Shown here: in pieces, positions 18,233-46,757 of the stretch
How the letters are laid out: every line of letters starts with the position of its first letter
How positions within the stretch are numbered: position 1 is the first letter of the stretch
NCBI GenBank assembly: GCA_020148055.1
Contig: JAHCRF010000003.1
Location: 1-52,442 of the forward strand
DNA length: 52,442 nt
Origin: Patescibacteria group bacterium
GTDB lineage: Bacteria > Patescibacteriota > Minisyncoccia > Minisyncoccales > JAHCRE01
Reading direction: 5' to 3'
Translations under genes and position numbers: made by a program
The notes under the pieces: generated by a model
Seen by the model: the letters and a program-made list of their open reading frames with translations, nothing else
The model's database searches: none
Told to the model about the DNA's origin: nothing

Positions 18233-18300
18233 ATAAAAATTGAATAGCTTTAAAATAAGATAAAACCAATTATCTTTTCCACAGAATATTCACAGTCAAT

Positions 18301-18326
18301 AAAAAAATCGCCTAAAATATAGGCGG
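18301..18326 (-). terminator. Intrinsic terminator after the 18351..19736 gene
   Basis: cgccta / taggcg 6-bp stem (18309-18325) with a 5-nt loop. A T-run follows on the minus strand (A-run 18301-18307 on the plus strand). Confidence 0.55.
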
Positions 18327-18350
18327 TTTTTGAATACTTTCTTTTTTCCC

Positions 18351-19736: not shown

Positions 19737-19784
19737 CTTATTTCATTATAAACAAAAAATTAAAAAGAAAAAAATGTAGAAAAA

Positions 19785-23385: not shown

Positions 23386-23388
23386 AAT

Positions 23389-23483
23389 TTTACCCAGTTA
23401 GTACAACTTTGACATCCATAACTCAACTTTGTTGAGTTATGGGAGATTTCGCGAAGCGGGTCAAAGTTGTCCTACTGGGTTTA
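23389..23483 (-). repeat. Inverted-repeat element family 1, copy 1 (long form)
   Basis: ttta-cccagttagtacaactttgac ... gtcaaagttgtcctactggg-ttta. Internal hairpin ccataactcaac/gttgagttatgg. It fills the whole intergenic gap and its outer TTTA overlaps the TAA stop of the upstream gene. Confidence 0.7.
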
Positions 23484-23915: not shown

Positions 23916-23924
23916 AATTTCTGA

Positions 23925-24488
23925 CTAATCACTGGAGACGGGAAGATTTGCCGGCGGAGGAATAACTTTCTTTCTTTTCTTAAGATATTTTAGCAAGAAA
24001 AATCCAATTAAACAAATCACTAAAATTCCAACTATCAACCAAGGCAAATGCCGAGAAAAAACTGCTAAAAGAGAAGCTAAAAAGATCGACTCCCCCTCCC
24101 TGACATTTAGTCTTAAAGGAATTTTCAGCCCGGGACCAACACTGAAGCTCCGGCGATCCAAAGAAGCGACTAAAACCGAGAGGTTTGTCGCTTTTTTACC
24201 TTCTTCTTTTGCTAAAACTTTAATTTTCACCTCTTTATTTTCTCCTGCCTCTAATCTGAAACTATTTGGCTCAATTTTTATCCATTCATTTAATTCATCA
24301 GAAAAAACTTGGAAAATTCCCGCTTCCTGGGAGATGTTGTAAACTAAAATTTTTGTTTTTTGGGGCTGACCGACTTTTAATTCTAAATCTAAAAAAGACG
24401 GTTTAGCTCCAATCCCAATAGCTAAAGCAGAATCAAAAAAGAAAAGAGAAAAGACAAAAAGGAAGATTATTAAGATTTTTAATCTCAT
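23925..24488 (-). CDS. Secreted beta-sandwich-like protein with a C-terminal TM anchor
   Basis: 187 aa. Signal peptide, alternating beta-strand pattern (KILVYNISQEAGIFQV, EVKIKVLAK), C-terminal TM helix and basic stop-transfer (KKRKK). Confidence 0.55.
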   Translation of the reverse strand: MRLKILIIFLFVFSLFFFDSALAIGIGAKPSFLDLELKVGQPQKTKILVYNISQEAGIFQVFSDELNEWIKIEPNSFRLEAGENKEVKIKVLAKEEGKKATNLSVLVASLDRRSFSVGPGLKIPLRLNVREGESIFLASLLAVFSRHLPWLIVGILVICLIGFFLLKYLKKRKKVIPPPANLPVSSD

Positions 24489-33458: not shown

Positions 33459-33525
33459 TAACCTCTGAGCTAAGTGCCCAATTTTACTTAACCCATTAAA
33501 ATATTATAATAAATAAAAGGGGAAG

Positions 33526-35514
33526 ATGCAAATATTTGAGCTACATTTTAATCCAAAGGCTGAAGAAGATCTAATTTTTGATAGTTTTTGTTATACGCCC
33601 GCAAATGTCTATGAAAAGAGGTTGGGAGGTTTGTATTTAGTTGGAGAGCTAAAAAATGCCCTACCCCAAAACTTTCGCCTTTTAGATAACTTAGCCAAAA
33701 TTATTAAAGGAAAATTTTATGGTTTCCCAGTTCAATCAATTGAGGAAAGTCTTAAAGAAAGTCTTAAGCGGGCTAATGAATTTTTGGAACAAGAAGTTAA
33801 AAAAGACAATACTAGTTGGTTGGGAAATTTGAATTTTGCTGTAATTTCTTTAAAAAACTTTAATTTAAACTTTACTAAATTTGGAGATCTAAAAATTTTA
33901 TTATTAAGGGAAGGTCAAATAGTTAACATTGGTAGGAGATTGGAGCTTCAAGAAATTGAACCTTACCCCTTAAAAGTATTTCTAAATGTTGTCTCTGGAA
34001 AATTATCAAGGGAAGATATTATTTTTATCTCCACAAAAGAGGTCTTTGATCTTTTTTCAAGAGAGAATTTAGTAGATGAGATAGCCCAAATTCCAGTTGA
34101 AGAAAAATTTTCTGAAAAAAAATTAAAAAAAATTCTAAAAAATAAAGAGAAAATCTTATCAGAAATCTCAGGAGTCTGTCTCTTAATTGTACTGAAACCT
34201 GAATTTTTACTAAAGCGGGCTTTAAGTTTTGAAAAAGAAGTTCCAGTTCTCCAAATCGGAAAAATTTTCAAACCCCTTGTTACTAAAATAACCACGTGGA
34301 AGTCTACCTTCCGCAATATATGGAAGTCTGCCATCTCCAGTAAGATAAGTAAAGAGAAATTAAAAATTTCTCCCAAAGTTTCTCCCCAGAAAATTTTAAA
34401 AAAACTCAGCATTTCCCCAAAAATTAAATTCTCTAAAGATTTTAAAAAGAAACTAATTTTAATTTTTGCTCTAATTTTTTTCCTTTTGTTGGGATTTTTT
34501 ATTTTTAAAAGGAGGAAAGAAGTTTCTTTAAGGGAAACTCAAAATATCTTTTCAGAAATTCAAGCAAAAATTAATTTGGCTGGAGATTTCTTAATCTTAA
34601 AAGATGAAGAAAAAGCCAATTCGATACTAAAGGAGGCTTGGGAAGAAATTTTACCTTTAATTGAAATTAAGCACCCTTTAAAAAATGAGATTCTGGCTTT
34701 AAAAGAATCAATTGAAGAAAATCTCCAAAATCTAAACAAATTAGAAAAAATTACTACACCTAAAATTTTATTTGAATTTTCAGAAAAGGAATTTTTGCCC
34801 CAAAAAATAGTAGGGCTTGACAAGGTCTTATATTTTTTTAATCCTTATTCTAAGGACCTCTACAAGTTTGAGGAGGGAGAAAAAATTAAAATAGAAACTA
34901 ATCAAAAATTTAATAAGGCTGTTCCTTTTGATAAAGATTCAATTTTATTCTTTTTGGAACCTGATAAGTTAATTTTTTTGAAAGAAGATCGATTTGGAGA
35001 AATTTTTTCTTTAAAATCTCCTTACCCGGATTTTAGCTGTAATGACTTATCGGTTTTTAGAAGAAATATTTATTTTTTAGATGAGAAGACAGGAGAAGTT
35101 ATAAGATATTCATCACCTTTGGAAACCTATAAAGATTTCCCAAAATTCTGGTTGAATCCTGAAACCAAAAAAGTCACCGATGCAAAATCAATAGCTATAG
35201 ACGGAAGTATCTGGATTTTAAATCGTGAAAACAATATTGATAGATTCTATCTTGGAGAATATCAGGAAACTTTGATTTTGGACTTCTTTCCTTACTCAAA
35301 AAACATCGAGAAAATTTTAATTAACCAAAACTTACCTTACCTCTTCCTTATGGAACCTGAACAATCGCGAATAATTATTTTAAATAAATCAGGTCAGATA
35401 ATTTCCCAATTTCAAAGTGAAAAATTTGACAATTTAAAAGATTTTGCCGTCTCTGAAGATGGTATAATTTATCTATTAAATGGCCTAAAAATTTATCAAA
35501 TTAAACTCCAATGA
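33526..35514 (+). CDS. Hypothetical membrane protein (N-terminal globular domain, central TM helix, C-terminal beta-rich domain)
   Basis: 662 aa with ATG start and AAAAGGGGAAG upstream. TM helix LILIFALIFFLLLGFFIF at about residue 310. No confident family assignment. The stop overlaps the next gene (ATGA). Confidence 0.7.
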   Translation: MQIFELHFNPKAEEDLIFDSFCYTPANVYEKRLGGLYLVGELKNALPQNFRLLDNLAKIIKGKFYGFPVQSIEESLKESLKRANEFLEQEVKKDNTSWLGNLNFAVISLKNFNLNFTKFGDLKILLLREGQIVNIGRRLELQEIEPYPLKVFLNVVSGKLSREDIIFISTKEVFDLFSRENLVDEIAQIPVEEKFSEKKLKKILKNKEKILSEISGVCLLIVLKPEFLLKRALSFEKEVPVLQIGKIFKPLVTKITTWKSTFRNIWKSAISSKISKEKLKISPKVSPQKILKKLSISPKIKFSKDFKKKLILIFALIFFLLLGFFIFKRRKEVSLRETQNIFSEIQAKINLAGDFLILKDEEKANSILKEAWEEILPLIEIKHPLKNEILALKESIEENLQNLNKLEKITTPKILFEFSEKEFLPQKIVGLDKVLYFFNPYSKDLYKFEEGEKIKIETNQKFNKAVPFDKDSILFFLEPDKLIFLKEDRFGEIFSLKSPYPDFSCNDLSVFRRNIYFLDEKTGEVIRYSSPLETYKDFPKFWLNPETKKVTDAKSIAIDGSIWILNRENNIDRFYLGEYQETLILDFFPYSKNIEKILINQNLPYLFLMEPEQSRIIILNKSGQIISQFQSEKFDNLKDFAVSEDGIIYLLNGLKIYQIKLQ

Positions 35515-37292
35515 AACAGCTCAGTCATAAAGAATTTAAAAAAATGATTCTTAAATCTTGGCAAAGGATTGAAAGAGACAAAGAGGAGATTAATAAAATC
35601 AATGTCTTCCCTGTTCCTGATATGGATACCGGAAATAATTTAGCTAGAACCTTAGAGGGTATAAAAAAAGCAATTGAAAATAGAGAATTTAAAGATTTAG
35701 ATGAGTTGTCAGAAACTGTTCTTGATAGTGCTCTGGTTTCTGCTCAGGGGAATGCCGGGGTAATTTATACTGGTTTTTTAGCAGGTTTCCTGCCTCTTCT
35801 TAATAAAAATCCAATCGATTCTAAAAAATTAGCTCAAGCTTTTGAAAAAGGAGCAAAAAAAGCCAGAGCGGCTATTCAAAATCCAAAGGAGGGTACTATT
35901 TTAGATGTCATAGATGCCGCAACTGAAAGTATTAAAAAAGAATCAGAAACTGAAAAAAATCTAAGCTTGTTATTCAAAAAAGCAGTTGAGAAAGCGAAAG
36001 ACGCTCTCTTGGCAACTCGTGATAAGATAGAAGTTCTAAAAAAGGCAAATGTAGTTGATGCAGGTGGTTTAGGTTTCCTAATGATTTTAGAAAGCTATCT
36101 TGGAGTTTTAAAAGGTGAAAAAAAAGAAAAAACAAAACAAAAACCTTCAGAAAAAATTAGAAGATTTATCCAGACAATTTCTTATCGTTATGAAGTTGTT
36201 TTTTTAATTAAAAATCTAAAAATTAAAATTAATGATTTAAAAGAAAAACTTGGCAAACTGGGAAATTCCCTTGAAGTTTTGCAAATTAAGGATAAAATAA
36301 AAGTCCATATTCATACTGATGAACCAGATAAAGTTAAAGAAATTGCCAGAGATTCCGGTGAAATTTTAGACCTCGGGGTTGAAGATATGGCAAAAGAAAT
36401 TGCAGGTGAAGAATCTCAAAAAAAGGTCTCTATAGGTCTTGTTACTGAAGATATCTCTGATCTTCAAGAAAAAATCTTGGAAAAATATCAGATTGAGATA
36501 GTCCATACTATTCTTGACTGGCCGGAAGTAACTAATTTACCCGGTGAAAACATTTATCAAAAAATGCGGGAAGCTGAAAAAAGAGGAATTAAAGAGCTGG
36601 GGAAAACTTCACAAGCTCCCCCAATAGCCTATCTCAAAGCTTATCAGAAACAGCTTCAGAGATTTGAAAAAGTTCTTTGTATTACTATTACCTCAAAAAT
36701 CTCGGGAAGCTATAATTCGGCCTGTCAGGCAAGATTAATATTGGATGACCCTTCTAAAGTTTATGTCTTAGATTCTCTAAATGGTTCAGCTGGCCAGGCT
36801 CTTTTGATTTTGCGGGCAATTGAGTTAATCCAGGAACAAAGAGAAATTGATGAAATTATTGAAGAACTCAAAAATTTAATTCCAAAAATCCGCTTATATT
36901 TATTTTTTGAAGATCCAAAATGGATAGAGGCAAGCGGAAGAATAAGCCATTCTCAGGCAAACTGGATAAGAAGGATGAAAAAAATGGGAATAAGACCCTT
37001 ACTGGAAATAAAAAATGGTGTAATCGCTAAAGGAGGAGTTTCAATTTTTGCCAAAGATATTTCAGAAGCTCTCTTTAAAAAAATTGAGAAAGAGAGTAAA
37101 AAAATTAGAAAAGAAGGTAAAAAAATCAGAGCAATAATTACTCATGCTGATAATCCTGAAGGAGCTGAAAAATTAAAAAAGATGTTAAAAGAAAGAACAG
37201 GAGCTGAAGTTCCCTTTGTCAATTTAGTTTGTACCTTGGTTGGCTCGAGACTGGGTCCGGGAGGCCTACTTGCTAGCTGGCACGAAATTTAA
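35511..37292 (+). CDS. DAK2 (FakA-like kinase domain) - DegV (FakB-like fatty-acid-binding domain) fusion protein
   Basis: 593 aa. The N-terminal roughly 200 aa carry the Dak2/DhaL pattern (VFPVPDMDTGNNL, GNAGVIYT, ANVVDAGGLGF). The C-terminal roughly 290 aa are DegV-like (TSQAPP, ITITSKISGSYNSA, VLDSLNGSAGQ, GSRLGPGGL). Confidence 0.8.
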   Translation: MKQLSHKEFKKMILKSWQRIERDKEEINKINVFPVPDMDTGNNLARTLEGIKKAIENREFKDLDELSETVLDSALVSAQGNAGVIYTGFLAGFLPLLNKNPIDSKKLAQAFEKGAKKARAAIQNPKEGTILDVIDAATESIKKESETEKNLSLLFKKAVEKAKDALLATRDKIEVLKKANVVDAGGLGFLMILESYLGVLKGEKKEKTKQKPSEKIRRFIQTISYRYEVVFLIKNLKIKINDLKEKLGKLGNSLEVLQIKDKIKVHIHTDEPDKVKEIARDSGEILDLGVEDMAKEIAGEESQKKVSIGLVTEDISDLQEKILEKYQIEIVHTILDWPEVTNLPGENIYQKMREAEKRGIKELGKTSQAPPIAYLKAYQKQLQRFEKVLCITITSKISGSYNSACQARLILDDPSKVYVLDSLNGSAGQALLILRAIELIQEQREIDEIIEELKNLIPKIRLYLFFEDPKWIEASGRISHSQANWIRRMKKMGIRPLLEIKNGVIAKGGVSIFAKDISEALFKKIEKESKKIRKEGKKIRAIITHADNPEGAEKLKKMLKERTGAEVPFVNLVCTLVGSRLGPGGLLASWHEI

Positions 37293-37328
37293 ACCCAGTA
37301 GGACAATGACATTGTACTACTGGGTAAA
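37290..37328 (+). repeat. Inverted-repeat element family 1, copy 2 (minimal 33-nt hairpin form)
   Basis: taaa-cccagtaggacaatg-a-cattgtactactggg-taaa. The first TAA is the stop codon of the DAK2-DegV gene. On the plus strand it has the same transcript-sense orientation as copies 1 and 3. Confidence 0.7.
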
Positions 37329-37350
37329 AATCACTTATAATATAAAATAT

Positions 37351-38475
37351 ATGAAGAATTTCATTAAAGGAGTTGGAATGACAAAGTTTGATTATACCCA
37401 GAAACCCTGGTGGCAATTTGCCTATACAGCTGCAATGGAAGCTTTAGAAGATGCCAATATGAAAATTTCTGATATCGATGCAATTTTGTTTGCTGCCATT
37501 TCCAGCGCTGCCGGTGGCGAGCACCAAACCCATAAAATCTCCCTTTTGTCTGATTTATTCAAAACCAATGTTCCAATAATTGAAACTACCGGTGTTTGTT
37601 CAGGTTCCTCAATTGCTCTCTGGACAGCCTGCCGTCTTAATTTTAAAAATATTTTGGTTCTTTCTGGAGAGAAAGTGGTTGATAATACTACTGATATAGT
37701 TACTGACAGAATTCTATCAGCTGCTGAAAGAGTAATTGAACAAAGTGAAGGAATGCTTTTTCCGGTCCAAAAGGTTTTCATCTGGCAGCAATATAGTAAA
37801 AAATATGGGGCTACAATGGATGATTTAGCTCTAATTTCTTATAAAAATCATCAAAATGGTGCTTTGAATCCCACGGCCTATTTCTATAATCGGCCGATTT
37901 CTTTAGAACAAATCAAAAAATCCCCAGTAGTTGCCTCACCTTTCAGGTTATTCGATTGCTGTATATCAGTTAATGCTGGAACGGCAGCGATTGTTTCAAA
38001 AGAAAGAAGTGACATTGAAATTGCAGGCTCTGGTTTTACTACTGACTATATTTTGACTTTTGGCAGAAAGAATATTACCCATTATGAAGCCACTCAAAGA
38101 GCAGCTAAACTTGCCTATCAACAAGCTAACATAACACCTGAAGATATTGATCTAGCTGAAGTTCATGATGCCTTTACCTCAGATGAGTTGATTGCCTATG
38201 AAGATTTAGGCTTTGCCCCGGTTGGGAAAGGAGCAGAATTAATAAGATCAGGTAAAGTAAATTTAGATGGCCAGCTACCGGTTAATCCTTCAGGGGGATT
38301 GAAGGCAAAAGGTCATCCCATTTCCCCAACCGGATTAGCCCAAATTGGAGAGATTACCAATCAACTTCGCGGTCGCTGTGCAACGCGTCAGATAAAAAAT
38401 GCCAAAATTGGCTTGTGTCATAACATTGGAGGAAATGCTGGTAATGTTGTCGTCCACATTTTAAGAAAATTATAA
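37351..38475 (+). CDS. Thiolase-fold condensing enzyme (archaeal/SCP-x-type acetyl-CoA acetyltransferase-like)
   Basis: 374 aa from ATG 37351; the track start at 37240 overlaps the previous gene and the repeat. Active-site Cys in TGVCSGSS, then EVHDAFT, NPSGGLKAKGHPISPTG and CHNIGGN motifs. Confidence 0.85.
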   Translation: MKNFIKGVGMTKFDYTQKPWWQFAYTAAMEALEDANMKISDIDAILFAAISSAAGGEHQTHKISLLSDLFKTNVPIIETTGVCSGSSIALWTACRLNFKNILVLSGEKVVDNTTDIVTDRILSAAERVIEQSEGMLFPVQKVFIWQQYSKKYGATMDDLALISYKNHQNGALNPTAYFYNRPISLEQIKKSPVVASPFRLFDCCISVNAGTAAIVSKERSDIEIAGSGFTTDYILTFGRKNITHYEATQRAAKLAYQQANITPEDIDLAEVHDAFTSDELIAYEDLGFAPVGKGAELIRSGKVNLDGQLPVNPSGGLKAKGHPISPTGLAQIGEITNQLRGRCATRQIKNAKIGLCHNIGGNAGNVVVHILRKL

Positions 38476-38517
38476 AAAAATACTTCAATTTGCAAATGCA
38501 AACTGAAGGCCACAACT

Positions 38518-40014
38518 ATGAAAATTTTATTAATTTGGCCAAAATTTCCCAATACTTTCTGGAGTTTCAAATATGCCCTTCCTTTTATTGGAAAGCGGGC
38601 AGCCTTTCCTCCTCTGGGCTTACTAACAGTAGCTGCTTTATTACCCAAAAAATGGGAGAAAAAAATAATTGATCTAAATATTGAAAAGTTAAACGAAAAA
38701 GACATTTTATGGGCAGATTTTGTATTTATTTCAGCTATGGTTGTCCAAAAACAATCGGTAAAAGAAATCGTTAAAAGAGCTAAAAATTTTGGTAAAAAAA
38801 TTGTTGCTGGCGGTCCTCTTTTCACCACAGGTTTCGAAAATTATTTAAAAGATATAGATCACTTTGTTTTGGGAGAGGCTGAAATTACTTTGCCTCTATT
38901 TTTGGAAGATCTTGAAAAAGAAGGCTTGAAAAAAATATATAAATCTGAAAAATTTGTAGATATAGGAAAATCTCCTATTCCTCTCTGGGGATTAATTGAT
39001 ATGAAAAAATATGCCTCAATGAGTATTCAGTATTCCCGAGGGTGTCCTTTTAATTGTGAGTTCTGTGATATTATTCTTTTAAATGGTAGAGTCCAGAGGG
39101 CAAAAGATAAAGATCAAATCTTAAGAGAACTAACTGCCTTATATAATCGTGGTTGGCGGGAAGGCGTCTTTTTTGTTGATGATAATTTTATCGGAAATAA
39201 AAAGAAATTAAAAGAAAAAATTTTACCAGCACTGATTGAATGGATGACCGACAAAGGATATCCATTTTTCTTGAATACTCAGGTATCGATAAATCTTGCC
39301 GACGATGAAGAGTTAATGAAGTTAATGGCGAAAGCTGGATTTAATACTGTATTTGTTGGTATTGAGAGCCCAAACGAAGAAAGTCTGGCTGAATGTGGTA
39401 AATTTCAAAATATAAACCGTGATTTATTAAGCTCCGTTAAAATTATTCAAAATCAGGGTCTGCAAGTTCAAGGAGGATTCATTATTGGATTTGATCACGA
39501 TACCACCTCAATTTTTGACCGAATGATTAATTTTATCCAGAAAAGTGGAATAATTACAGCCATGGTTGGTTTGCTACAGGCGGCACCAAAAACAAGATTA
39601 TGGAAAAGATTGAGGAAGGAAAAACGTTTAATGGGGGAGCCGACTGGCAGTAATACCGATTGCACAATAAATTTTATTCCTAAAATGAACCCTCGGGTTC
39701 TAATTTCAGGTTACCAAAGGGTGATGAATACTATTTATAGACCTGAAAATTACTATCAAAGATTGATAACATTTTTAAAACGATATAAACCAAAAAGAAA
39801 AGAACCTTTTCAGTTAAATTGGCAAAAATTTTTAGCCTTTTTGAAATCAATCTGGATTTTAGGAATTGCTGAAAAAGAAAGGCTCCATTATTGGAAGCTT
39901 ATCTTCTGGAGTGTTTTTAAAAAACCCAAGCTTTTTCCAATAGCGATTACGTTAGCAATTTATGGATTTCATTTTCGAAAAATCTCAGAAGAGAACTTAT
40001 CGATTAAAAGTTAA
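38518..40014 (+). CDS. B12-binding-domain radical SAM protein (class B, DUF4070-type C-terminus)
   Basis: 498 aa. N-terminal cobalamin-binding Rossmann-like domain (MKILLIWPKFP...FPPLGLLTVAA...ISAMV), a CPFNCEFCD radical SAM cluster motif, and a long C-terminal extension. Confidence 0.9.
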   Translation: MKILLIWPKFPNTFWSFKYALPFIGKRAAFPPLGLLTVAALLPKKWEKKIIDLNIEKLNEKDILWADFVFISAMVVQKQSVKEIVKRAKNFGKKIVAGGPLFTTGFENYLKDIDHFVLGEAEITLPLFLEDLEKEGLKKIYKSEKFVDIGKSPIPLWGLIDMKKYASMSIQYSRGCPFNCEFCDIILLNGRVQRAKDKDQILRELTALYNRGWREGVFFVDDNFIGNKKKLKEKILPALIEWMTDKGYPFFLNTQVSINLADDEELMKLMAKAGFNTVFVGIESPNEESLAECGKFQNINRDLLSSVKIIQNQGLQVQGGFIIGFDHDTTSIFDRMINFIQKSGIITAMVGLLQAAPKTRLWKRLRKEKRLMGEPTGSNTDCTINFIPKMNPRVLISGYQRVMNTIYRPENYYQRLITFLKRYKPKRKEPFQLNWQKFLAFLKSIWILGIAEKERLHYWKLIFWSVFKKPKLFPIAITLAIYGFHFRKISEENLSIKS

Positions 40015-40019
40015 GAGAT

Positions 40020-41108
40020 ATGTTTTATCAGTGTCCAAAATGTAAAAAAACTTGGCAATATCCGATTGAAAAATGCCCGGATTGTTTTTTGAAGTTAGAG
40101 CGAGTATTTTCTGAAAAAATAAAAGTGGTTGCTGTCTCTCGAGTAAATATTCCTACCCCTTTACATCCGAAAATTCCCTATTTTGTTTTACTTTTGGAGG
40201 ATGACAAAGGAAGAAAATGGGTTCAAAAATCAGTAAAAGAATATAAAGCGGGCTCTGAATTTAAAATCGAATCAACCCAAGATAAAAATGCCGTAGCTAT
40301 CTGGCGAGTAAAATATGATGTTTTAGAAGCAATCGAAAAAGTAGTCAGCTTAATTGAAAAGATAAATCCCGCTGTAAAAACCTTAATTTTACCAACCCTG
40401 ATTGCTCCCCGTCATCCCTATTTTGCCCAAAATACCAGCCCTGAGGTTTTAAACCAACTAATTAAATTTCTAATCCAAAGGGGAGTAAAAAAAGAAAATA
40501 TCAAAGTTGCTGCCCAGAGCTTTAACGATTTTCCAATTACAGCTTCGGCTAAAAAATCAAAGTTTTTATCTGTTTGTGAAAAAAATAAAGTTCAAATTTT
40601 AGATCTTTCTCAAAAAGGTTTCAAAAGACTACAACCCACCCACCGCCCTTCAATCCCCCCCACCCACCCTAAAACAGAAAATTTTATTTTTGATGTTTCA
40701 GAAGAAGTTTTCAAAAACGATTTAATAATCAATTTGCCAATTTTAAAACTTGATAAAAAAATAGGAATAAGAGGAGCCTTAGAGAACCTAACCAGGTTTC
40801 TGAACAAAGAATCCTATTTGGGCTTGAAATATCTATACGGAGAGCAAAAGTTAATCCTTTCCCTCAAAGAGGTCTTACCCGAAATTCTAACTATAGCTGA
40901 TGCCATATCAATCCAAACACCAAACACTTTTACTGCCTTTTCCGGTCTGATTTTAGCCAGTTTCAATCCCTTGAATTTAGACCGAGTAATGGCTGAAGTG
41001 GCTTTGATTGATTTGCCAGAATATTTGAAATCTGTTAATCTAAATAAAATCAAGATTGTCGGCAGAGAGATTGCTGAGGTCCAATATGATTTAAAAAGTA
41101 TGATTTAA
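40020..41108 (+). CDS. DUF35 (zinc ribbon + OB fold) - DUF362 fusion protein
   Basis: 362 aa. CPKC...CPDC ribbon followed by an OB-like segment (KVVAVSRVNIPTP...YFVLLLEDDKGRKW), as in thiolase-associated DUF35 proteins. The C-terminal roughly 250 aa are DUF362-like (KTLILPTLIAPRHPYFAQNTSPEVLNQLIKFL). Confidence 0.65.
   Translation: MFYQCPKCKKTWQYPIEKCPDCFLKLERVFSEKIKVVAVSRVNIPTPLHPKIPYFVLLLEDDKGRKWVQKSVKEYKAGSEFKIESTQDKNAVAIWRVKYDVLEAIEKVVSLIEKINPAVKTLILPTLIAPRHPYFAQNTSPEVLNQLIKFLIQRGVKKENIKVAAQSFNDFPITASAKKSKFLSVCEKNKVQILDLSQKGFKRLQPTHRPSIPPTHPKTENFIFDVSEEVFKNDLIINLPILKLDKKIGIRGALENLTRFLNKESYLGLKYLYGEQKLILSLKEVLPEILTIADAISIQTPNTFTAFSGLILASFNPLNLDRVMAEVALIDLPEYLKSVNLNKIKIVGREIAEVQYDLKSMI
40627..40670 (+). 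repeat. C-rich repeat family 3, copy Y (in-frame inside the DUF362 part)
   Basis: gactacaacccacccaccgcccttcaatcccccccacccaccct encodes RLQPTHRPSIPPTHP. It is a sharp GC/C island in an AT-rich gene. Confidence 0.6.
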
Positions 41109-41121
41109 AAAATTAAAAATA

Positions 41122-41212
41122 GTCGCGAAGCCACGGGTTATAAGGTCCCGGGCGAGCGACACCTTTAAGTTTTTAGCGGTTGGACACCTTTTTCTGAAAA
41201 AGGGGTCCAAGT
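41122..41212 (+). ncRNA. Conserved structured intergenic element, copy B (upstream of fabG)
   Basis: GTCGCGAAGCCACGGGTTATAAGGTCCCGGGCGAGCGACACCTTTAAGTTTTTAGCGGTTGGACACCTTTTTCTGAAAAAGGGGTCCAAGT. Same architecture as copy A with compensatory changes in the basal stem. It ends 6 nt before the fabG ATG. Confidence 0.5.
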
Positions 41213-41218
41213 AGAATT

Positions 41219-41962
41219 ATGTATAACTTCAAAAACAAAGTAGTCCTAATTACCGGCGCTGCCCAAGGAATAGGAAAGGCGATTTCTCTAAAATTTGCCT
41301 CATTTGGAGCAAAATTGGCTCTAAATGACATTTTTACTCAGGAAGAAAATCTAAAAAAAGTGATTTCAGAAATCGGAGAAAAAAGTGAAGCACGCTATTT
41401 TTTAGCCGATGTTTCCAAATTAGAGGAGGTGAAAAAAATGATTCAAGATATTAAAAAAGAATTTGGCAGATTAGATGTTTTGGTCAATAATGCTGGAATC
41501 ATCCGGGATAGAACCTTAGCTAAAATGACAAAAGAAGAATGGCAGAAAGTTATTGATGTTGATTTAACCGGGATTTTCAACTGCTCCAAAACGGCCCTAC
41601 CTCTTCTTGTTCCAAATCAGGGGAAAATTATTAATATCTCCTCGGTTGTTGGTCAAAGAGGAAATTTTGGTCAGACAAATTATGCTGCAGCAAAAGCTGG
41701 AGTAATTGGCTTCACTAAAGCCCTGAGCAAAGAGGTGGGAAGATTTGGAGTGAGGGTCAACGCCATCGCGCCCGGTTTCATTGAAACAAAAATGGCTGAA
41801 GGAGTTCCTGATAAAATGAAAACTATAATCAAACAACTAACTTCTCTCGGTAGATTTGGAAAACCAGAAGAGGTTGCTAATGCTGTAATATTTTTAGCCT
41901 CAGATGAAGCCAGCTTTATTACCGGCGCAATTCTGAATCTTGATGGTGGATTGGCAATCTAA
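41219..41962 (+). CDS. fabG: 3-oxoacyl-(ACP/CoA) reductase, SDR family
   Basis: 247 aa. TGAAQGIG cofactor motif, NNAGI, catalytic S...YAAAK, and a typical FabG C-terminus (ITGAILNLDGGLAI). Confidence 0.9.
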   Translation: MYNFKNKVVLITGAAQGIGKAISLKFASFGAKLALNDIFTQEENLKKVISEIGEKSEARYFLADVSKLEEVKKMIQDIKKEFGRLDVLVNNAGIIRDRTLAKMTKEEWQKVIDVDLTGIFNCSKTALPLLVPNQGKIINISSVVGQRGNFGQTNYAAAKAGVIGFTKALSKEVGRFGVRVNAIAPGFIETKMAEGVPDKMKTIIKQLTSLGRFGKPEEVANAVIFLASDEASFITGAILNLDGGLAI

Positions 41963-41974
41963 TCTTTTTTAAAA

Positions 41975-42481
41975 ATGAATAAAGACTACAACCCACCCAC
42001 CACATCCTCCCCGAGCAAACTCGGGGCCCCTGAAATAAAAAAGATTATTCCTTATGATGATCCTTTTTTATTTGTGGATGGAGTAGAAGAAATTGGTGAA
42101 AATTTTATCATAGGTCACAAACAAACAAAGCCTGAAGATTATTTCTTTAAGGGCCATTTTGTTGATTTCCCAATAATGCCAGGGGTTTTAGTTGTTGAAG
42201 CAATTGCCCAGCTTTCGAGTATTTTATTACGTCGAAAAATTGGCAAAGACCACCAAAAAAAACATATCTTAGCCTACCAGGTTAAAAATGCCTCTTTTTA
42301 CAAACCAATTTTTCCAGGAGATAAAATCATTTTAAAGGCAAAAGTTTTAAATATTATTGATGAAAAAATCTCCAAAATTTTAGGCTCAGCTCTTGTTGGT
42401 AATGAGCCAAAATGTGAAGTAAGATTTATTTGCGCTATCATTGATAAAAAGGAATTTGAAGAAAAATACAGAAGTAAGTGA
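41975..42481 (+). CDS. fabZ: 3-hydroxyacyl-(ACP/CoA) dehydratase FabZ
   Basis: 168 aa. PYDDPFLFVD and HFVDFPIMPGVLVVEAIAQ hot-dog motifs. It has an unusual N-terminal extension of about 20 aa that contains repeat copy Z. Confidence 0.85.
   Translation: MNKDYNPPTTSSPSKLGAPEIKKIIPYDDPFLFVDGVEEIGENFIIGHKQTKPEDYFFKGHFVDFPIMPGVLVVEAIAQLSSILLRRKIGKDHQKKHILAYQVKNASFYKPIFPGDKIILKAKVLNIIDEKISKILGSALVGNEPKCEVRFICAIIDKKEFEEKYRSK
41984..42031 (+). repeat. C-rich repeat family 3, copy Z (at the fabZ 5' end)
   Basis: gactacaacccacccaccacatcctccccgagcaaactcggggcccct with internal hairpin ccccgag/ctcgggg. It is read in a different frame (DYNPPTTSSPSKLGAP) from copy Y. Confidence 0.6.
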
Positions 42482-42483
42482 AA

Positions 42484-43425
42484 ATGTTTGAGAAAAATAA
42501 ATTAACAAAACTTTTGGGAATTCAGTATCCAGTTATTCAAGGAGGAATGGCTGGCATCTCTGAAGCCAATTTGGTTTCAGCGGTTTCTAATGCCGGGGGC
42601 TTAGGAACAATTGGCGCAGGACTTATGCCAGATACTTGGTTAAGAGAAGAAATTAAAAAAACAAAGCAGCGAACTGAAAACCCTTTTGCTATTAATCTTT
42701 TTATCCAAAATCCCAAACTAGAAAATTTAGTAAAAATAATAATTGAAGAAAAAGTTCCTATTGTTTTTACTGGTGGAGGCAATCCCCTGCCCCTATTTCC
42801 TTATTTCAAGAAAGCAGGAATAAAAATTATTCCCGTAGTTCCTTCTCCGAGATTGGCAAAGAAAATGGAAGAAAATGATGCAGACGCGGTAGTTGTTGAG
42901 GGATCGGAGTCGGGAGGTCATATTGGAGAGTGTACCACTTTTGTTTTAATTCCACAGACTAAGAAAATTTTAACAAAAATCCCCCTAATTGCAGCCGGGG
43001 GAATTTATGATGGAAAAACAGCAGCTGCCGCTTTTTTGTTAGGAGCCGATGGCATCCAAATGGGAACCAGATTTTTAGCCAGCAAAGAATGTCAGATTCA
43101 CACAGACTACAAAAAAAAGATTTTAGAGGCAACGACTGACGAAATAAAAGTTGTTCTCCGCTTTACCGGTCATCCCTTAAGAGTAATCGAGAACCAGCTC
43201 TCTGAAGAGTGGCAGAAATTGGAAGAAAAAGGGGCCTTTCCAGAAGAAATAAAAGCTCAAAAAATAGTTAGTGGGAGAATAACCTCAGGTGATATTGAAA
43301 AAACACCCCTTTTAGCTGGATTTTCAGCTGGTGGAATTGCAGACATTAAAAGCTGCAAAGAAATAATTGAAGAAATTATAAAAGAAATGAAAGAAACAAT
43401 TAGAGAGTTGAGCGAAAATTTATGA
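42484..43425 (+). CDS. fabK: Enoyl-(ACP/CoA) reductase FabK-type (FMN, NPD/nitronate monooxygenase fold)
   Basis: ATG at 42484 (the track start at 42478 is GTG). LGIQYPVIQGGMAGIS, VVEGSESGGHIG and AAGGIYDG motifs. Confidence 0.8.
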   Translation: MFEKNKLTKLLGIQYPVIQGGMAGISEANLVSAVSNAGGLGTIGAGLMPDTWLREEIKKTKQRTENPFAINLFIQNPKLENLVKIIIEEKVPIVFTGGGNPLPLFPYFKKAGIKIIPVVPSPRLAKKMEENDADAVVVEGSESGGHIGECTTFVLIPQTKKILTKIPLIAAGGIYDGKTAAAAFLLGADGIQMGTRFLASKECQIHTDYKKKILEATTDEIKVVLRFTGHPLRVIENQLSEEWQKLEEKGAFPEEIKAQKIVSGRITSGDIEKTPLLAGFSAGGIADIKSCKEIIEEIIKEMKETIRELSENL

Positions 43426-44099
43426 ATCTTTTTGTATCTTATTTTTGTAAAATTTTTCTCCAACCAATAGTTGGAAAATTATTTATTAAAGAAGTTAAGG
43501 ACAGACAAAATATACCAAAAAGAAATTTTATTCTAGCTGCAAATCATCAGAGCCATCTAGATCAAATAGCAACAGGTTTCTTGTGTGTACCAAGAAGATA
43601 TCATTATCTCGGTCAAACTGACAGTTATACAGGATTTACCAAACTATTTTTATATATTTTGTATTTTATCGCCGGGGTTATCCATGTAAATAGAAAAAAG
43701 GAGGAATCCAGGAAAAGAGCAGCAGAGCAAGCTATTGAAGCCCTAAAAAAAGGGGCTTCTCTTGTAATTTATCCTGAGGGAACAAGAACAAGGACAGGAG
43801 AGATTCAATCGGGAAGATTGGGAGTGGCAAAAATTTTTTTAAAAACTGGAGTCCCAATTTTACCAGTTGGAATTGAGGGAACTTTCGAATTAATGCCCCC
43901 TGGTAAAAGTTTTCCGGAAATAAAAAGAATAGTTAAAATCAATATTGGAAAGCCTCTCTTTTTTAAAAAAGAATTTTTTGAAGCAAAAAAAATAAAAGAG
44001 AACTCAATTGAATATCAGAAAATTTTAAAAAAAATTACCAATAAGATAATGGATGAAATTTCTTTTTTAGCTAACAAAAATAAGCTAAATTTAACTTGA
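43422..44099 (+). CDS. plsC: 1-acyl-sn-glycerol-3-phosphate acyltransferase
   Basis: 225 aa. HX4D block (ANHQSHLD) and YPEGTRTRTG block. ATGA overlap with fabK. Confidence 0.85.
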   Translation: MNLFVSYFCKIFLQPIVGKLFIKEVKDRQNIPKRNFILAANHQSHLDQIATGFLCVPRRYHYLGQTDSYTGFTKLFLYILYFIAGVIHVNRKKEESRKRAAEQAIEALKKGASLVIYPEGTRTRTGEIQSGRLGVAKIFLKTGVPILPVGIEGTFELMPPGKSFPEIKRIVKINIGKPLFFKKEFFEAKKIKENSIEYQKILKKITNKIMDEISFLANKNKLNLT

Positions 44100-44684
44100 T
44101 CTTATGATAAAAAATATTCTCTGTATGGCAGTAAAGTTAGAAAAAATGGCAAAAATTATTAAAAGATAAATTAACCAAGAGAGGTTAAAAATACCCAAAA
44201 CCATTGAAAGAAAAATTAAAATCATTCTCTCTGGTCTTCCAAAAAGACCTTTTTTAAATTCTTTTTCTACTACTCTTTTTTCAAGAGCTGCTGCCTTTGA
44301 GTAAGTAGTCATTAAGGATCCAAAAAGGCAAAGAAAAATCCAGAAATTGGCTGAAAAAAGAAAATCAGGAAGAGGTAAAAACAAAAAGCCCAAAATCACC
44401 ATTCCTTCCACATATCGATCGCAAATTGTATCTAAATAGGCTCCCAATTTTGTTATTTTTTGGGAAGCTCTAGCCACTGCTCCGTCAATAAAATCGGAAA
44501 AAGAAGCTAGAAGAAGAAAGAAAATTGCCAAAATCAAATTATTTGTGGCTAAAAAGAGAAAACAAAAAAAACTAAATAAAAGAGAAATTAGAGTAAAGAA
44601 ATTTGGATGAATTTTAGATTTAGAAAAAAACAGCCCTACCTTTTCAGAAATTAATTTAAATTTTTCTCGTCTTTCCTCTAACAT
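44091..44684 (-). CDS. CDP-alcohol phosphatidyltransferase
   Basis: 197 aa. DFIDGAVAR-x8-G-x3-D-x3-D signature (DFIDGAVARASQKITKLGAYLDTICDR) and multiple TM helices. Confidence 0.85.
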   Translation of the reverse strand: MLEERREKFKLISEKVGLFFSKSKIHPNFFTLISLLFSFFCFLFLATNNLILAIFFLLLASFSDFIDGAVARASQKITKLGAYLDTICDRYVEGMVILGFLFLPLPDFLFSANFWIFLCLFGSLMTTYSKAAALEKRVVEKEFKKGLFGRPERMILIFLSMVLGIFNLSWLIYLLIIFAIFSNFTAIQRIFFIIRSS

Positions 44685-44699
44685 TTAGCTTTTGTAAAA

Positions 44700-44787
44700 T
44701 TTACCCGGTAGTACAACTCGTTTTTAACATTGATTTAGTTAATCTCGCTCCGGTTATGGCAATAGCGCTGTTGTCCTACCGGGTTTA
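44700..44787 (-). repeat. Inverted-repeat element family 1, copy 3 (long form)
   Basis: ttta-cccggtagtacaac ... gttgtcctaccggg-ttta. The distal TTTA overlaps the TAA stop of the PHP gene, and the interior differs from copy 1. Confidence 0.7.
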
Positions 44788-45459
44788 TCTTTTCAGATTC
44801 TTAAATTTAGCGATATTCCTTTTTAGATGGTCTCCTAATTTTTCCCAAAAGGAAATTCCCTCAAAACCAACCTTAACATTTCTTTTTCTTATTTCTTCTA
44901 AAACTTCGCTGGCAGATAAATTTTCTTTTGGAATTTCCAGATAGGCTTTACCAATAAAATCTACTGAATGAGCATCAGAACCGGCAGTAAAGGGAAGATT
45001 AAATTTTTCAGCGAATTCCAGAGCTTCTATATTGCAGAAATTAAAAAACAAGGAAGCATTAAAGACCTCAATAGCTACTCCTTTTTCTTGAAAGAAATCT
45101 TTATATTTCTCAATTTCTTTAAAACCCAAAAAATAATCAAAAGGGTGAGCAATTGCTGCTAGCCCCCCTTGATCAATTATTCTTTTTATTGTTTCTCTAA
45201 CTGACAGCCCATCAGGGATTTCTTTTTGAATACCCAAACCCAAAACCTCACCTTCTTTAGCTCTGCTTTCAATTCCTGGAATAACCAAAATGGGTTTTCC
45301 TTTAGCAAAACGGAGGGCTTCAATTGCCCCCTTTATTTCTCCATGATCGCAAATGCAGATGCAATCAATTTTTTTTGAGATAGCCGCATTAACAACTTCT
45401 TCTGGAAAAGGAAGACCGTCATAGGAAAAATTAGTATGCATGTGCAAATCAGCTTTCAT
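44785..45459 (-). CDS. PHP-domain metal-dependent phosphoesterase
   Basis: 224 aa. MKADLHMHTNFSYDG start, later CDHG, AHP and GSDAH metal-ligand motifs. Confidence 0.8.
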   Translation of the reverse strand: MKADLHMHTNFSYDGLPFPEEVVNAAISKKIDCICICDHGEIKGAIEALRFAKGKPILVIPGIESRAKEGEVLGLGIQKEIPDGLSVRETIKRIIDQGGLAAIAHPFDYFLGFKEIEKYKDFFQEKGVAIEVFNASLFFNFCNIEALEFAEKFNLPFTAGSDAHSVDFIGKAYLEIPKENLSASEVLEEIRKRNVKVGFEGISFWEKLGDHLKRNIAKFKNLKR

Positions 45460-45463
45460 AATA

Positions 45464-46123
45464 TTAAGGAAGTTTTTCTTTCCACTCTTCTAAGATTTTT
45501 TTGGCAACCTCTCTACCGCCTAAACCAAAAGCAATTCCACAAGCTAAAACGATTAATCCCAAAATGGCAATGAAAAGGCTTAAAATCAAATTAGGTACTA
45601 TTTGGAGTTGGTATAAAATGGCCAAAGTTGCTAAAACCCAAATTGCCCGGCGAGCTCCCACCCCGAGGAATCTTGAATAAGTGAGCTCAGTTTTTCTATC
45701 TGTTTTTTTGGCAGTGGCAAGAAAAATCCGATAAGTGAAATCAACTAAAAAGACAGTAACAATGAAAATTAGTGAAGCAATAAGGATATTTGGAAAATAA
45801 TTCACAATTCTTTCTAAAAATTGGCTAAATTGGGAAAGCCCGACAATCTCAAAAACCATCATCAAAAAAATAATCAAAACCAAGTATTTGGTAATCTCAC
45901 CAAAAAATTTAGCCATATCAAGTTTCATTTCCGCTCGGGCAAAAGCTTCCTTCCAACCCAATCTTTTCATTATCTGGTTAAGACGGATTTTATTTAAGAA
46001 ATCCCTCACTATTTTACTGACAATCTTAGAAATAATGATACCTACTATCAAAACTAAAAATGCTCCTAAAACCTGGACTAAAACTACCCGATTAATTTCT
46101 GGAAAAATAGAAAAATCAAACAT
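45464..46123 (-). CDS. Membrane protein with conserved TM-helix repeats (MscS-associated type)
   Basis: ATG at 46123 (the track start at 46180 is GTG and overlaps the upstream gene). Several TM helices separated by short amphipathic linkers. Confidence 0.55.
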   Translation of the reverse strand: MFDFSIFPEINRVVLVQVLGAFLVLIVGIIISKIVSKIVRDFLNKIRLNQIMKRLGWKEAFARAEMKLDMAKFFGEITKYLVLIIFLMMVFEIVGLSQFSQFLERIVNYFPNILIASLIFIVTVFLVDFTYRIFLATAKKTDRKTELTYSRFLGVGARRAIWVLATLAILYQLQIVPNLILSLFIAILGLIVLACGIAFGLGGREVAKKILEEWKEKLP

Positions 46124-46163
46124 ATTATTTAAGTATACCTTTTTTAAAAAAAAAGCAAAATTT

Positions 46164-46718
46164 TTAGATCTTACTATCACTAATTTTCAACCAAAAACCA
46201 ATTCTATTTACAATGATATGTAAAAGAAAACTAAGAAAAAGAATGTAAAAGAAAGCTAAAATTTGAATTTTAAAAAAGGGGCTAACTAATACAAAGGAGC
46301 CGATGACAAAACTTATTTGGTCAAAAGGAATCCAAGATTTTCCCGGGTCAATTTTCTGTCTTCTCTTTAAAAAACTAGAAATCAAATCTCCCAATAAAGC
46401 TCCAAAAGAAAGTAAGAAACCAAGGAAAAAGACATTAATTTCCTGATAATTAAAGAAGCTTAATTTTTTAAAAAAGGGAAATTGCCAAAGGAATCTTTGA
46501 AGGAAAGTTACTAAAATACCAATTAAAACTCCTAGAATTATCCCCCGCCAAGTTTTATGATGACCAAGAATCGGAAATCCTTGATATTTCTTTCCAAAAT
46601 CAACCGGTTTTGCTAAGGATTTCAAAACGCCAGCTTTTTTAGCAAAAGTTGGAGTCATATTAGCAAAATAGGCAGGAAGAAAAAAGTAAAGGCACCGGAG
46701 AATAAAAATCCAATCCAT
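46164..46718 (-). CDS. CarS-like (CDP-archaeol synthase family / DUF46) CTP:lipid cytidylyltransferase
   Basis: ATG at 46718 (the track start at 46733 is TTG). LPAYFANMTP, PVDFGK, ILGHHKTWRG, FGALLGDLISSFLKRR and PFDQ motifs parallel archaeal CarS as I recall it. Confidence 0.65.
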   Translation of the reverse strand: MDWIFILRCLYFFLPAYFANMTPTFAKKAGVLKSLAKPVDFGKKYQGFPILGHHKTWRGIILGVLIGILVTFLQRFLWQFPFFKKLSFFNYQEINVFFLGFLLSFGALLGDLISSFLKRRQKIDPGKSWIPFDQISFVIGSFVLVSPFFKIQILAFFYILFLSFLLHIIVNRIGFWLKISDSKI

Positions 46719-46757
46719 AAGAAATTTGTCCAATAGAAAGGAACCTCACTATTGGAT

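Follow-up and report, generated by a model that had tools for sequence, protein, structure and literature searches.

How could a bacterium of the Candidate Phyla Radiation (CPR) build acyl chains with no acyl carrier protein (ACP)? The question is raised by contig JAHCRF010000003.1 of a Patescibacteria group bacterium (GCA_020148055.1), whose 52,442 nt (GC ~34%) are called the window below. The usual view of the CPR, or Patescibacteria, is that they cannot make membrane lipids. The window has nine co-directional genes on the plus strand across 33526-44099, encoding among others a thiolase, a DUF35-like domain, FabG, FabZ, FabK and PlsC, and it holds the core of a lipid-synthesis supercluster conserved in Paceibacteria (Parcubacteria/Nealsonbacteria-type CPR). 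Judging from the sequences, it is quite possible, though short of probable, that the thiolase/DUF35 pair, FabG, FabZ and FabK elongate acyl chains on CoA, free of ACP, and that the products feed PlsC.

A nine-gene array on the plus strand

The features of the array are as follows.

33526-35514, plus strand: conserved 662-aa protein with a central transmembrane segment, first gene of the array
35511-37292, plus strand: FakA-DegV (FakB) fusion, 593 aa, with Dak2, FakA-like_M and DegV domains (Pfam)
37351-38475, plus strand: archaeal/SCP-x-type thiolase (Thiolase_C_1, 1e-43)
38518-40014, plus strand: class B (cobalamin) radical S-adenosylmethionine (radical-SAM) enzyme with B12-binding, Radical_SAM and DUF4070 domains
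40020-40340, plus strand: DUF35-like domain, a C4 zinc ribbon plus OB fold at residues ~1-105 (fold-level match)
40341-41108, plus strand: DUF362 domain of LarA-like fold, fused to the DUF35-like domain (PF04015, 4.3e-13)
41106-41212, no strand assigned: GC-rich double-hairpin dispersed repeat, occupying the DUF362-FabG gap
41219-41962, plus strand: FabG-type 3-oxoacyl reductase, a short-chain dehydrogenase/reductase (SDR) (NF004198, 297.3 bits)
41975-42481, plus strand: FabZ-type 3-hydroxyacyl dehydratase of hotdog fold (FabA domain, 9.6e-22)
42478-43425 (from 42484 if the start is ATG), plus strand: FabK-type flavin mononucleotide (FMN) enoyl reductase (NMO domain, 3e-68)
43422-44099, plus strand: PlsC-family 1-acylglycerol-3-phosphate acyltransferase (Acyltransferase domain, 3.5e-24)

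The first-pass annotation, made from the letters of the window, had described seven same-strand genes from the thiolase to PlsC, and the open reading frames (ORFs) on the plus strand, scanned against Pfam and NCBIfam, bear out both their number and their identities. The intergenic gaps of 42, 5, 110 and 12 nt and the 4-nt overlap of FabK with PlsC agree with the ORF list. The 2-nt gap given for the FabZ-FabK junction applies if FabK starts at an ATG; with a GTG start the two genes overlap by 4 nt. The limits of the run had to be redrawn at both ends. Position 43425 is the end of FabK, with PlsC reaching 44099, and the thiolase is not the first gene, being preceded by the 662-aa ORF (from 33526) and the FakA-DegV fusion.

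The 662-aa ORF overlaps the FakA-DegV gene by 4 nt and has a promoter-like site ahead of it at 33483-33510. Its product gave no match in a Pfam scan, and orthologs lie upstream of FakAB in three related loci (L018, L040 and L041). The FakA-DegV fusion, separated from the thiolase by 58 nt, matches the NCBIfam models YloV, FakA and FakB1, each under the cut-off. It is predicted to be a fatty-acid kinase that converts free fatty acid to acyl-phosphate, and FakAB heads the cluster in at least 15 loci.

No carrier protein in the window or in related loci

As had been claimed at first pass, no gene for ACP, FabD, FabH/FabF/FabB or acetyl-CoA carboxylase (ACC) occurs in the 52 kb, according to Pfam scans of essentially all ORFs of at least 100 aa, and the window has no Ketoacyl-synt family protein. 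Six-frame phmmer --max and tblastn searches for a cryptic ACP, with E. coli and B. subtilis ACP queries, returned nothing below E=0.38. ACP, 3-ketoacyl-ACP synthase (KAS) and FabD are not found in related loci either, over ~0.5 Mb of cluster neighbourhoods, and AcpS is found neither in the window nor in these loci.

Nealsonbacteria have near-complete fatty-acid and phospholipid genes, without AcpS, FabD and PlsX, and a screen of 675 CPR genomes turned up no enzyme for making ACP or dependent on it; for Nealsonbacteria the authors "cannot rule out" a route independent of ACP (Probst et al. 2020, PMC7242380). Minisyncoccus archaeiphilus, which is cultured and has a complete genome, is reported to have no complete fatty-acid pathway, and the role of its cluster is given as "unclear" (PMC12281837). 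The cluster there comprises MNSC_05910 (thiolase), 05920 (DUF362), 05930 (FabG), 05940 (FabA-like), 05950 (FabK) and 05970 (AccC), and the covered part of the annotation table has no KEGG Orthology (KO) numbers for acpP, fabD, fabF or fabH.

Conservation of the cluster

The relatives compared are metagenome-assembled genomes labelled Parcubacteria, Paceibacteria, Nealsonbacteria or Patescibacteria. Scanning the GTDB species representatives with the DUF35/DUF362 protein gave 22 loci, and contig look-ups together with scans for HMG-CoA synthase (HMGCS) gave ~20 more. The GTDB scans use exact peptide patterns and are not exhaustive; the DUF362 scan missed L026, L027, L035 and L037.

More than 30 loci of different Paceibacteria species share the gene order, at protein identities of 35-92% (tblastn map). 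The consensus is FakAB-thiolase-[DUF359, opposite strand]-[DUF4430, DUF6580, radical SAM]-DUF35/DUF362-[BioY]-FabG-[inserts]-FabZ-FabK-PlsC(1-2)-AccC-BCCP-BirA-carboxyltransferase-[PlsY], where BCCP is the biotin carboxyl carrier protein and brackets mark what is present in some loci. FabG follows DUF35/DUF362, with or without BioY between them, in 27/27 loci, and the thiolase lies 0-3 genes upstream of DUF35/DUF362 in 23. When the window is compared with the 85%-identical relative L041, dN/dS is 0.06-0.22 for all eight genes compared, FabG being the most conserved (96% identity, dN/dS 0.06). The arrangement is far beyond chance. Scattering of these genes in relatives, which the first-pass annotation had named as an outcome that would tell against its proposal, is not what the >30 loci display.

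Most relatives have a DUF359 gene directly behind the thiolase and opposite to it in strand, as seen in L001, L003, L006-L012, L014, L019, L020, L023 (8933-9430, minus strand), L027, L030, L036 and L038, HMGCS-thiolase loci included; the cluster of the window has none. The archaeal GTP-dependent dephospho-CoA kinase belongs to DUF359. A full Paceibacteria-type cluster, 52-76% identical to the window, is also found on DATKUR010000013.1 (L026/L043), which is labelled 'Candidatus Humimicrobiaceae'; the label is probably due to mis-binning, or else the cluster was transferred horizontally.

Thiolase and DUF35/DUF362 protein as the candidate condensing module

The thiolase is the sole condensing-enzyme candidate in the cluster. 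Its sequence has the motifs VCSG, HDAF, NPSGGLKAKGHP and GLCHNIGG, and it belongs to the Pfam family Thiolase_C_1 (148.9 bits, cut-off 28). The best NCBIfam models, PRK06064 (294.6 vs 420 bits) and the acetyl-CoA acetyltransferase (ACAT) of Methanothermococcus thermolithotrophicus (AcCoTHIOL_METTL, 253 vs 600), both score below their cut-offs. The PDB ranking is 7yvy, then 6esq (1.5e-48), then SCP2-thiolases and BbsB, whereas a FadA-type model scores merely 49.6 bits and FabH models 21-25. The identification as an archaeal/SCP-x thiolase of the DUF35-partnered type is thereby upheld, and among the PDB matches the enzyme groups with DUF35-partnered and not with beta-oxidation thiolases. VC[SAG]G with the nucleophilic Cys, GHP and HDAF are kept in 14/14 orthologs, and the Ser of 'CxS' is not conserved; the roles of the Cys, GHx and HDxF motifs have been described (PMC12960953).

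The 362-aa protein at 40020-41108 had been read as a zinc-ribbon/OB DUF35 module fused to DUF362. Pfam detects DUF362 alone, at residues 125-325. Pfam DUF35 (PF01796/PF12172) gives zero matches even at E<=10 with four N-terminal domains and the full protein, and PDB sequence searches with the N-terminus (phmmer and profile) find no DUF35, the profile search returning only 6htj at E=1.8. It is the fold that supports the earlier reading, as a C4 zinc ribbon plus OB fold predicted by AlphaFold2 (AF2) and Foldseek. The cysteines C5, C8, C19 and C22 are invariant in 40 homologs. The full-length AF2 model is poor (pLDDT 57.6); in Foldseek its DUF362 part matches LarA and malate/lactate racemases (E 2e-4), and its first ~84 residues match DUF35 chains. 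A domain-only model of the N-terminus reaches pLDDT ~75 across residues 1-84, and its top 18 PDB matches in Foldseek are all DUF35 proteins (probability 1.00, root-mean-square deviation ~4 A), followed by a sharp drop in score. These matches include 6ok1, 7pyt, 9vbt, 7pxp, 5m3k, 6htj, 6esq and 3irb, and among the proteins are ChsH2, BbsA, MucC, PhlB, Trf, the 6ESQ DUF35 (6esq_E, 26% identity over 83 columns) and 3IRB. JGI names several homologs 'uncharacterized OB-fold protein', and the Minisyncoccus ortholog has an eggNOG match to COG1545 (1.7e-8), the matched protein being an archaeal Hbd-COG1545 fusion. We accept a DUF35-like fold for the N-terminus as modelled; by sequence it does not belong to the DUF35 family.

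The DUF35/DUF362 family has 492 members at 90% clustering; each of the best 120 is full-length and shares this architecture. DUF362 shares a Pfam clan with DUF2088, the LarA N-domain (PMC11770544).

FabG, FabZ, FabK and PlsC

[quoted passage not shown] FabG passes the NCBIfam FabG equivalog NF004198 (cut-off 296) and scores 255.8 bits, below the cut-off, on the acetoacetyl-CoA reductase model TIGR01829. FabZ has the catalytic motif GHF...PGVL..EA..Q and scores 99-104 bits on FabZ models (best 103.5, cut-off 113). FabK scores 357 bits on TIGR03151 (cut-off 453), and its best PDB match is the FabK 7l00 (1.9e-89). PlsC scores 76 bits on TIGR00530, below the cut-off.

In E. coli FabG, ACP docks on a basic patch around R129. 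This patch is neutral in all 25 Paceibacteria FabGs compared, a weak support for an ACP-free cycle.

Carboxylase module in relatives

AccC-BCCP-BirA-carboxyltransferase lies past PlsC in 12 of the 14 related loci that have sequence there, often with BioY, which tends to sit between DUF362 and FabG. The carboxyltransferase is of the PccB/AccD5 type. L040, otherwise collinear with the window, has BioY and the carboxylase genes, the latter between PlsC and the gene resembling phosphatidylinositol phosphate (PIP) synthase (16090-20259). The window and L041 have no BioY, AccC, BCCP, BirA or carboxyltransferase in the cluster, and it looks as if the biotin module had been cleanly lost or relocated in this sublineage. 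The claim that ACC is missing thus holds for the 52-kb window and is a peculiarity of its sublineage.

With a carboxylase module in 12/14 related clusters, the ancestral system would make a carboxylated extender, and the ancestral cycle probably uses one of malonyl type. The purely non-decarboxylative condensation proposed at first pass therefore cannot be assumed. The carboxylase is the chief difficulty for an ACP-free cycle, as use of a malonyl-type extender ordinarily requires a KAS that decarboxylates it. Three options are possible: the thiolase uses a malonyl-type extender, an unrecognised KAS exists, or ACC serves otherwise. The remaining genes function without a cluster-encoded carboxylase, as is shown by purifying selection on the rest of the cluster in the sublineage that lacks ACC.

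Mevalonate genes in relatives

HMGCS directly adjoins the thiolase ortholog in L030, L032, L033, L034 and L036 (five species), and these thiolases are 66-71% identical to that of the window, as close as the copies linked to FakAB. In three of these genomes the thiolase has been relocated beside HMGCS and DUF35/DUF362-FabG stays elsewhere without it (genome pairs L002/L030, L013/L034 and L015/L036, the DUF35/DUF362-FabG loci being L002, L013 and L015). In L023, L027, L028, L035 and L037, genes for UbiA, the geranylgeranyl-reductase family (GGR), polyprenyl synthase, Nudix, HMGCS, HMG-CoA reductase and mevalonate kinase lie between FabG and FabZ. The isoprenoid block spans 13385-20388 in L023 and 13373-16478 in L006; together with the CarS-like gene and the gene resembling archaetidylinositol-phosphate synthase (AIPS-like), it looks like a large part of an archaeal-type gene set for isoprenoid lipids, here in a CPR bacterium.

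The thiolase would be one and the same ortholog throughout, serving HMGCS in the genomes that have it. Because it adjoins HMGCS and mevalonate blocks sit in the clusters, the thiolase/DUF35 pair would be at least partly an archaeal-type mevalonate entry module. When GTDB was scanned for two HMGCS motifs that do not vary among ten diverse Paceibacteria sequences, only 13 species matched, four of them among the 22 cluster-bearing genomes; no large-contig genome matched, the 957-kb scaffold of L021 included. This pattern-based result is suggestive only, yet it argues against mevalonate synthesis as the sole reason for thiolase retention in most cluster-bearing genomes.

The radical-SAM enzyme and its FabX-like counterpart

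The radical-SAM enzyme has the cluster motif CPFNCEFC (CxxxCxxC), an N-terminal B12-binding domain (PF02310, 45.9 bits, cut-off 32.1), a Radical_SAM core (PF04055, 68.2 bits) and PF13282 (146.7 bits), and is thus of class B. HpnP and HpnP-like lipid C-methylases have the same B12-binding, Radical_SAM and DUF4070 architecture (PMC10697835). Membership in HpnP/HpnR/HpnJ, PhpK, BchE or the ladderane family TIGR04072 was rejected, the best NCBIfam score being 97.4 against 600 and all falling far under their cut-offs (HpnR 52, HpnJ 62 and TIGR04072 79 bits). The best PDB match is weak (2.9e-9).

Its orthologs share 65-85% identity, and their place is always between the genes for the thiolase and DUF35/DUF362. 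The lipid-locus setting and HpnP-like domains are consistent with the tailoring role that had been proposed; about half of the clusters carry the gene, which is an accessory rather than a part of the core. Our best guess, held with low confidence and drawn by analogy, is cobalamin-dependent C-methylation, or other C-C chemistry, on a growing or finished lipid chain.

DUF4430 and DUF6580 genes, whose products look like cobalamin-capture and ECF-S-type uptake proteins, lie directly upstream of the radical-SAM gene in L005, L019, L020, L023, L038 and L039. In the window, a minus-strand locus at 22849-26236 encodes a DUF6580 protein resembling an ECF S-component (22849-23385), a protein with DUF4430 (23481-23915) and one of 583 aa (24485-26236) in which a prenyltransferase-like alpha/alpha toroid is joined to DUF4430 in a transcobalamin-like layout. 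This is a probable cobalamin-scavenging locus.

FabZ carries a fused NMO domain, the second in the cluster, in L007, L009, L010, L012, L014, L017 and L021 (e.g. L010:13140-14639), and a separate FabK sits alongside. The best PDB match of the fused domain is H. pylori FabX (7E1Q-7E1S, 8.5e-55 vs 1.9e-37 for FabK), and it carries a 4-Cys cluster, CxxCx4Cx4C. Because FabX acts at the C10 stage, where it introduces a cis double bond, chains would be elongated through C10 in the relatives that bear the fusion. The fusion and the radical-SAM gene exclude each other over 15 loci: FabZ is plain in 9/9 loci with the radical-SAM gene, and among loci without it that show FabZ, six have the fusion. Four loci with neither carry GGR or mevalonate genes. 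The exclusivity is a lead only and may reflect clades; with low confidence, radical-SAM tailoring may be an alternative to FabX-type unsaturation for membrane fluidity.

A proposed ACP-independent pathway

In the proposed pathway, the thiolase would carry out Claisen condensation on CoA thioesters while held by the DUF35-like domain of the fusion protein, and channelling of the 3-ketoacyl-CoA to FabG would pull the unfavourable condensation forward. FabZ and FabK would close the cycle without ACP, and PlsC, taking acyl thioesters, would esterify the products. In the sublineage of the window, condensation or elongation would proceed without a cluster-encoded carboxylase. FakA-FakB would turn free fatty acid into acyl-phosphate for PlsY, which is cluster-encoded in relatives, and this would answer the question of Probst et al. 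(2020) on the source of acyl-phosphate without PlsX. The CarS-like, PIP-synthase-like and PHP genes downstream would build the head group. In relatives, the thiolase would also give acetoacetyl-CoA to HMGCS, and isoprenoid and acyl lipids would then both branch off from the thiolase/DUF35 pair, DUF35 handing ketoacyl-CoA to FabG in the acyl branch or to HMGCS in the isoprenoid branch. The radical-SAM enzyme would provide optional tailoring, most likely by C-methylation of the lipid chain. Only tentatively do we extend this to a Paceibacteria hybrid synthase, in which an archaeal thiolase/DUF35(-DUF362) pair and bacterial FabG/FabZ/FabK act on CoA, with the condensing pair shared with HMGCS as a lipid branch point and with swappable B12 radical-SAM or FabZ-FabX modules for chain tailoring.

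Several points weigh against CoA-based elongation. FabG, FabZ and FabK are typically ACP-dependent families, and FabG passes the cut-off of an ACP-reductase equivalog. Genes for ACP and KAS might sit in another part of the genome, of which 52 kb were covered. Most relatives keep ACC in the cluster, as would suit a decarboxylative KAS more than a thiolase; no SCP-x-type thiolase is known to use malonyl-CoA. Behind the DUF35 assignment are AF2 models whose confidence is modest (pLDDT 58 and 65), and the genome scans for HMGCS and DUF362 are pattern-based and not exhaustive. The thiolase ortholog stands beside HMGCS in five species and in the mevalonate block in others, so that its conserved role may be mevalonate synthesis only.

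This last point leads to an alternative that is unlikely: the thiolase and the DUF35-like protein are a mevalonate entry and nothing else, and FabG, FabZ, FabK, FakAB and PlsC remodel scavenged fatty acids in what is a mere 'lipid island'. Besides the HMGCS adjacency and the isoprenoid blocks described above, it can draw on 6esq, the best characterised relative of the thiolase, which is part of an HMGCS/DUF35 complex, and on FakA-FakB, which points to uptake of free fatty acids. However, Pfam scans of the ORFs find no HMGCS in the window, and the invariant-motif scan, which is not exhaustive, leaves HMGCS undetected in most cluster-bearing genomes. DUF35/DUF362 is tied to FabG in 27/27 loci and not to HMGCS, and it remained with FabG where the thiolase moved to HMGCS (L013/L034, L015/L036 and L002/L030). 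The ACC, BirA, BioY and FabX-like genes of relatives, moreover, have no part in remodelling finished chains.

Ordinary ACP-dependent FASII, with ACP, AcpS, FabD and KAS encoded elsewhere or too divergent to be recognised and with the thiolase unrelated to it, seems distinctly improbable. FabG, FabZ and FabK are of canonical families, FabG above its equivalog cut-off, the ACC of relatives could supply malonyl-CoA as in FASII, only 52 kb of the genome is covered, and H. pylori FabX, the nearest structure to the fused domain of relatives, works on acyl-ACP (PMC8626469). What speaks against it is that neither the window nor the related loci contain an ACP-like ORF, that the 675 CPR genomes have no enzymes making or needing ACP and Nealsonbacteria no AcpS or FabD (PMC7242380), and that the complete Minisyncoccus genome, reported to have no complete pathway, holds the same cluster (PMC12281837). 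The covered part of the Minisyncoccus annotation, without KO numbers for acpP, fabD, fabF and fabH, points the same way, as does the loss of the R129 patch in FabG. It is more improbable still, and by our judgement very much so, that the cycle stops short, with acetyl-CoA ending up as butyryl- or hexanoyl-CoA in a pathway of the reverse beta-oxidation type that serves as a fermentative electron sink or for storage and does not supply acyl chains to membranes. CPR bacteria are fermenters, the thiolase is ACAT-like, FabG scores well on the acetoacetyl-CoA reductase model (below its cut-off) and the window has no ACC. The cycle genes are nevertheless in tight and conserved linkage with PlsC, PlsY, FakAB, a CDP-diglyceride synthase-like gene and head-group genes, the cluster has no gene for phosphotransbutyrylase/butyrate kinase or a CoA-transferase, and the FabX-like fusions of relatives would act at ~C10.

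The repeat element and neighbouring genes

The 110-nt DUF362-FabG gap had been described as a structured RNA element. It does fold stably (-37.5 kcal/mol, z = -3.7), but what it holds is a dispersed repeat and not an operon-specific regulator. Between mraW and mraZ, at 17592-17698, there is a second copy in inverted orientation, 94% and 79% complementary over two 48-nt arms. The repeat occupies the position where relatives carry BioY; otherwise their gap is 0-80 nt. There is no Rfam match even at E<=1, and a riboswitch or leader RNA was ruled out by this, by the non-conserved gap and by the second copy. The ~107-nt double hairpin is a dispersed element resembling repetitive extragenic palindromes or miniature inverted-repeat transposable elements (REP/MITE-like).

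Downstream of PlsC the strand changes, and four genes follow.

44091-44684, minus strand: CDP-alcohol transferase, AIPS-like, convergent with PlsC
44785-45459, minus strand: PHP phosphatase
45464-46180, minus strand: MscS-like protein
46164-46733, minus strand: CarS-like CDP-diglyceride/archaeol synthase

The head-group genes have an archaeal flavour. For the CDP-alcohol transferase the best model is archaetidylinositol-phosphate synthase with 137.5 bits, as against 88 for bacterial PIP synthase, both below cut-off, and the cytidylyltransferase at 46164-46733 is of the CarS (CDP-archaeol synthase) family. The PHP phosphatase between them could be a PIP phosphatase. Head-group genes of the 44091-46733 type also lie beside the cluster in L003, L006, L008, L012, L020, L023 and L038-L041. 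On the other side of the array, a 2016-aa ORF (26520-32570, minus strand) with Laminin_G_3 and GH85_C/fn3-like segments and internal direct repeats of ~1.8 kb (families D4, D12 and D14) probably encodes a large surface protein.

Comparison with known systems and implications

In Sulfolobus acidocaldarius the ketothiolase Saci_1121 and DUF35 protein Saci_1120 form a pair that binds an SDR (Saci_1104) and a MaoC dehydratase (Saci_1085), and with the enoyl-CoA reductase Saci_1115 of the medium-chain dehydrogenase/reductase (MDR) family it makes fatty acids without ACP (Schmerling et al., bioRxiv 10.1101/2024.07.05.601840). The window shares with this synthase an SCP-x/archaeal thiolase with a DUF35-fold partner, a FabG-homologous SDR, a dehydratase and an enoyl reductase; both are without ACP, with intermediates presumed to be on CoA. 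It differs in having FabZ (FabA/Z hotdog) for MaoC and FMN-dependent FabK for the MDR enzyme, in the fusion of DUF35 to DUF362 and its score below the Pfam DUF35 threshold, and in its bacterial host; relatives have an extra biotin carboxylase module. By analogy, the window system would work most like the archaeal DUF35 synthase, although it has neither the MaoC nor the MDR member.

The thiolase/HMGCS/DUF35 complex of Methanothermococcus thermolithotrophicus (6ESQ/6ET9) contains the second-best PDB match of the thiolase, and the thiolase of relatives adjoins HMGCS as well. In contrast to that complex, the window has no HMGCS gene, its DUF35-like domain is linked to FabG and there is an additional DUF362 domain. 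FabG, FabZ and FabK in operon order with PlsC nearby, and ACC in relatives, recall the FASII operons with FabK of Streptococcus and Clostridia. The window and related loci, however, have no acpP, fabD, fabH or fabF, and a thiolase and DUF35-like protein stand at the head of the operon; the window system is not a member of FASII, having no ACP, FabD or KAS. The radical-SAM enzyme has the same three-domain architecture and lipid context as the HpnP-type cobalamin radical-SAM lipid C-methyltransferases, with B12-uptake-like genes adjacent in relatives, but it passes no NCBIfam family model and there is no hopanoid pathway. The FabZ-fused domain of relatives resembles H. pylori FabX, a [4Fe-4S] enzyme of the NMO family in anaerobic-type unsaturated fatty-acid synthesis, down to its 4-Cys cluster. 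It differs from FabX in being fused to FabZ and in apparently missing an ACP partner, and the window has the radical-SAM gene in its place.

The first-pass annotation had called the combination a pathway not described in bacteria. An ACP-independent route had been raised for Nealsonbacteria by Probst et al. (2020), and what stands of the claim is that it was not tied there to a thiolase/DUF35 pair. We found no paper tying these genes to that pair, to a DUF362 fusion, to an alternation of radical-SAM and FabX-like modules or to a shared mevalonate branch.

If the proposed pathway is right, it would be the first ACP-independent fatty-acid synthesis in bacteria, which so far has been shown only in archaea. 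It would also explain how archaea-dwelling CPR bacteria come by acyl lipids of bacterial type. Among the Paceibacteria are cultured parasites of methanogenic archaea, hosts that offer no fatty acids. Because archaeal-type genes (thiolase, DUF35, CarS-like, AIPS-like and mevalonate) and bacterial-type genes (FabG/Z/K, PlsC/Y and FakAB) share one island, the finding would matter for scenarios of the 'lipid divide'. One carrier of the cluster, Minisyncoccus archaeiphilus, is in culture, so that the question is open to direct test.

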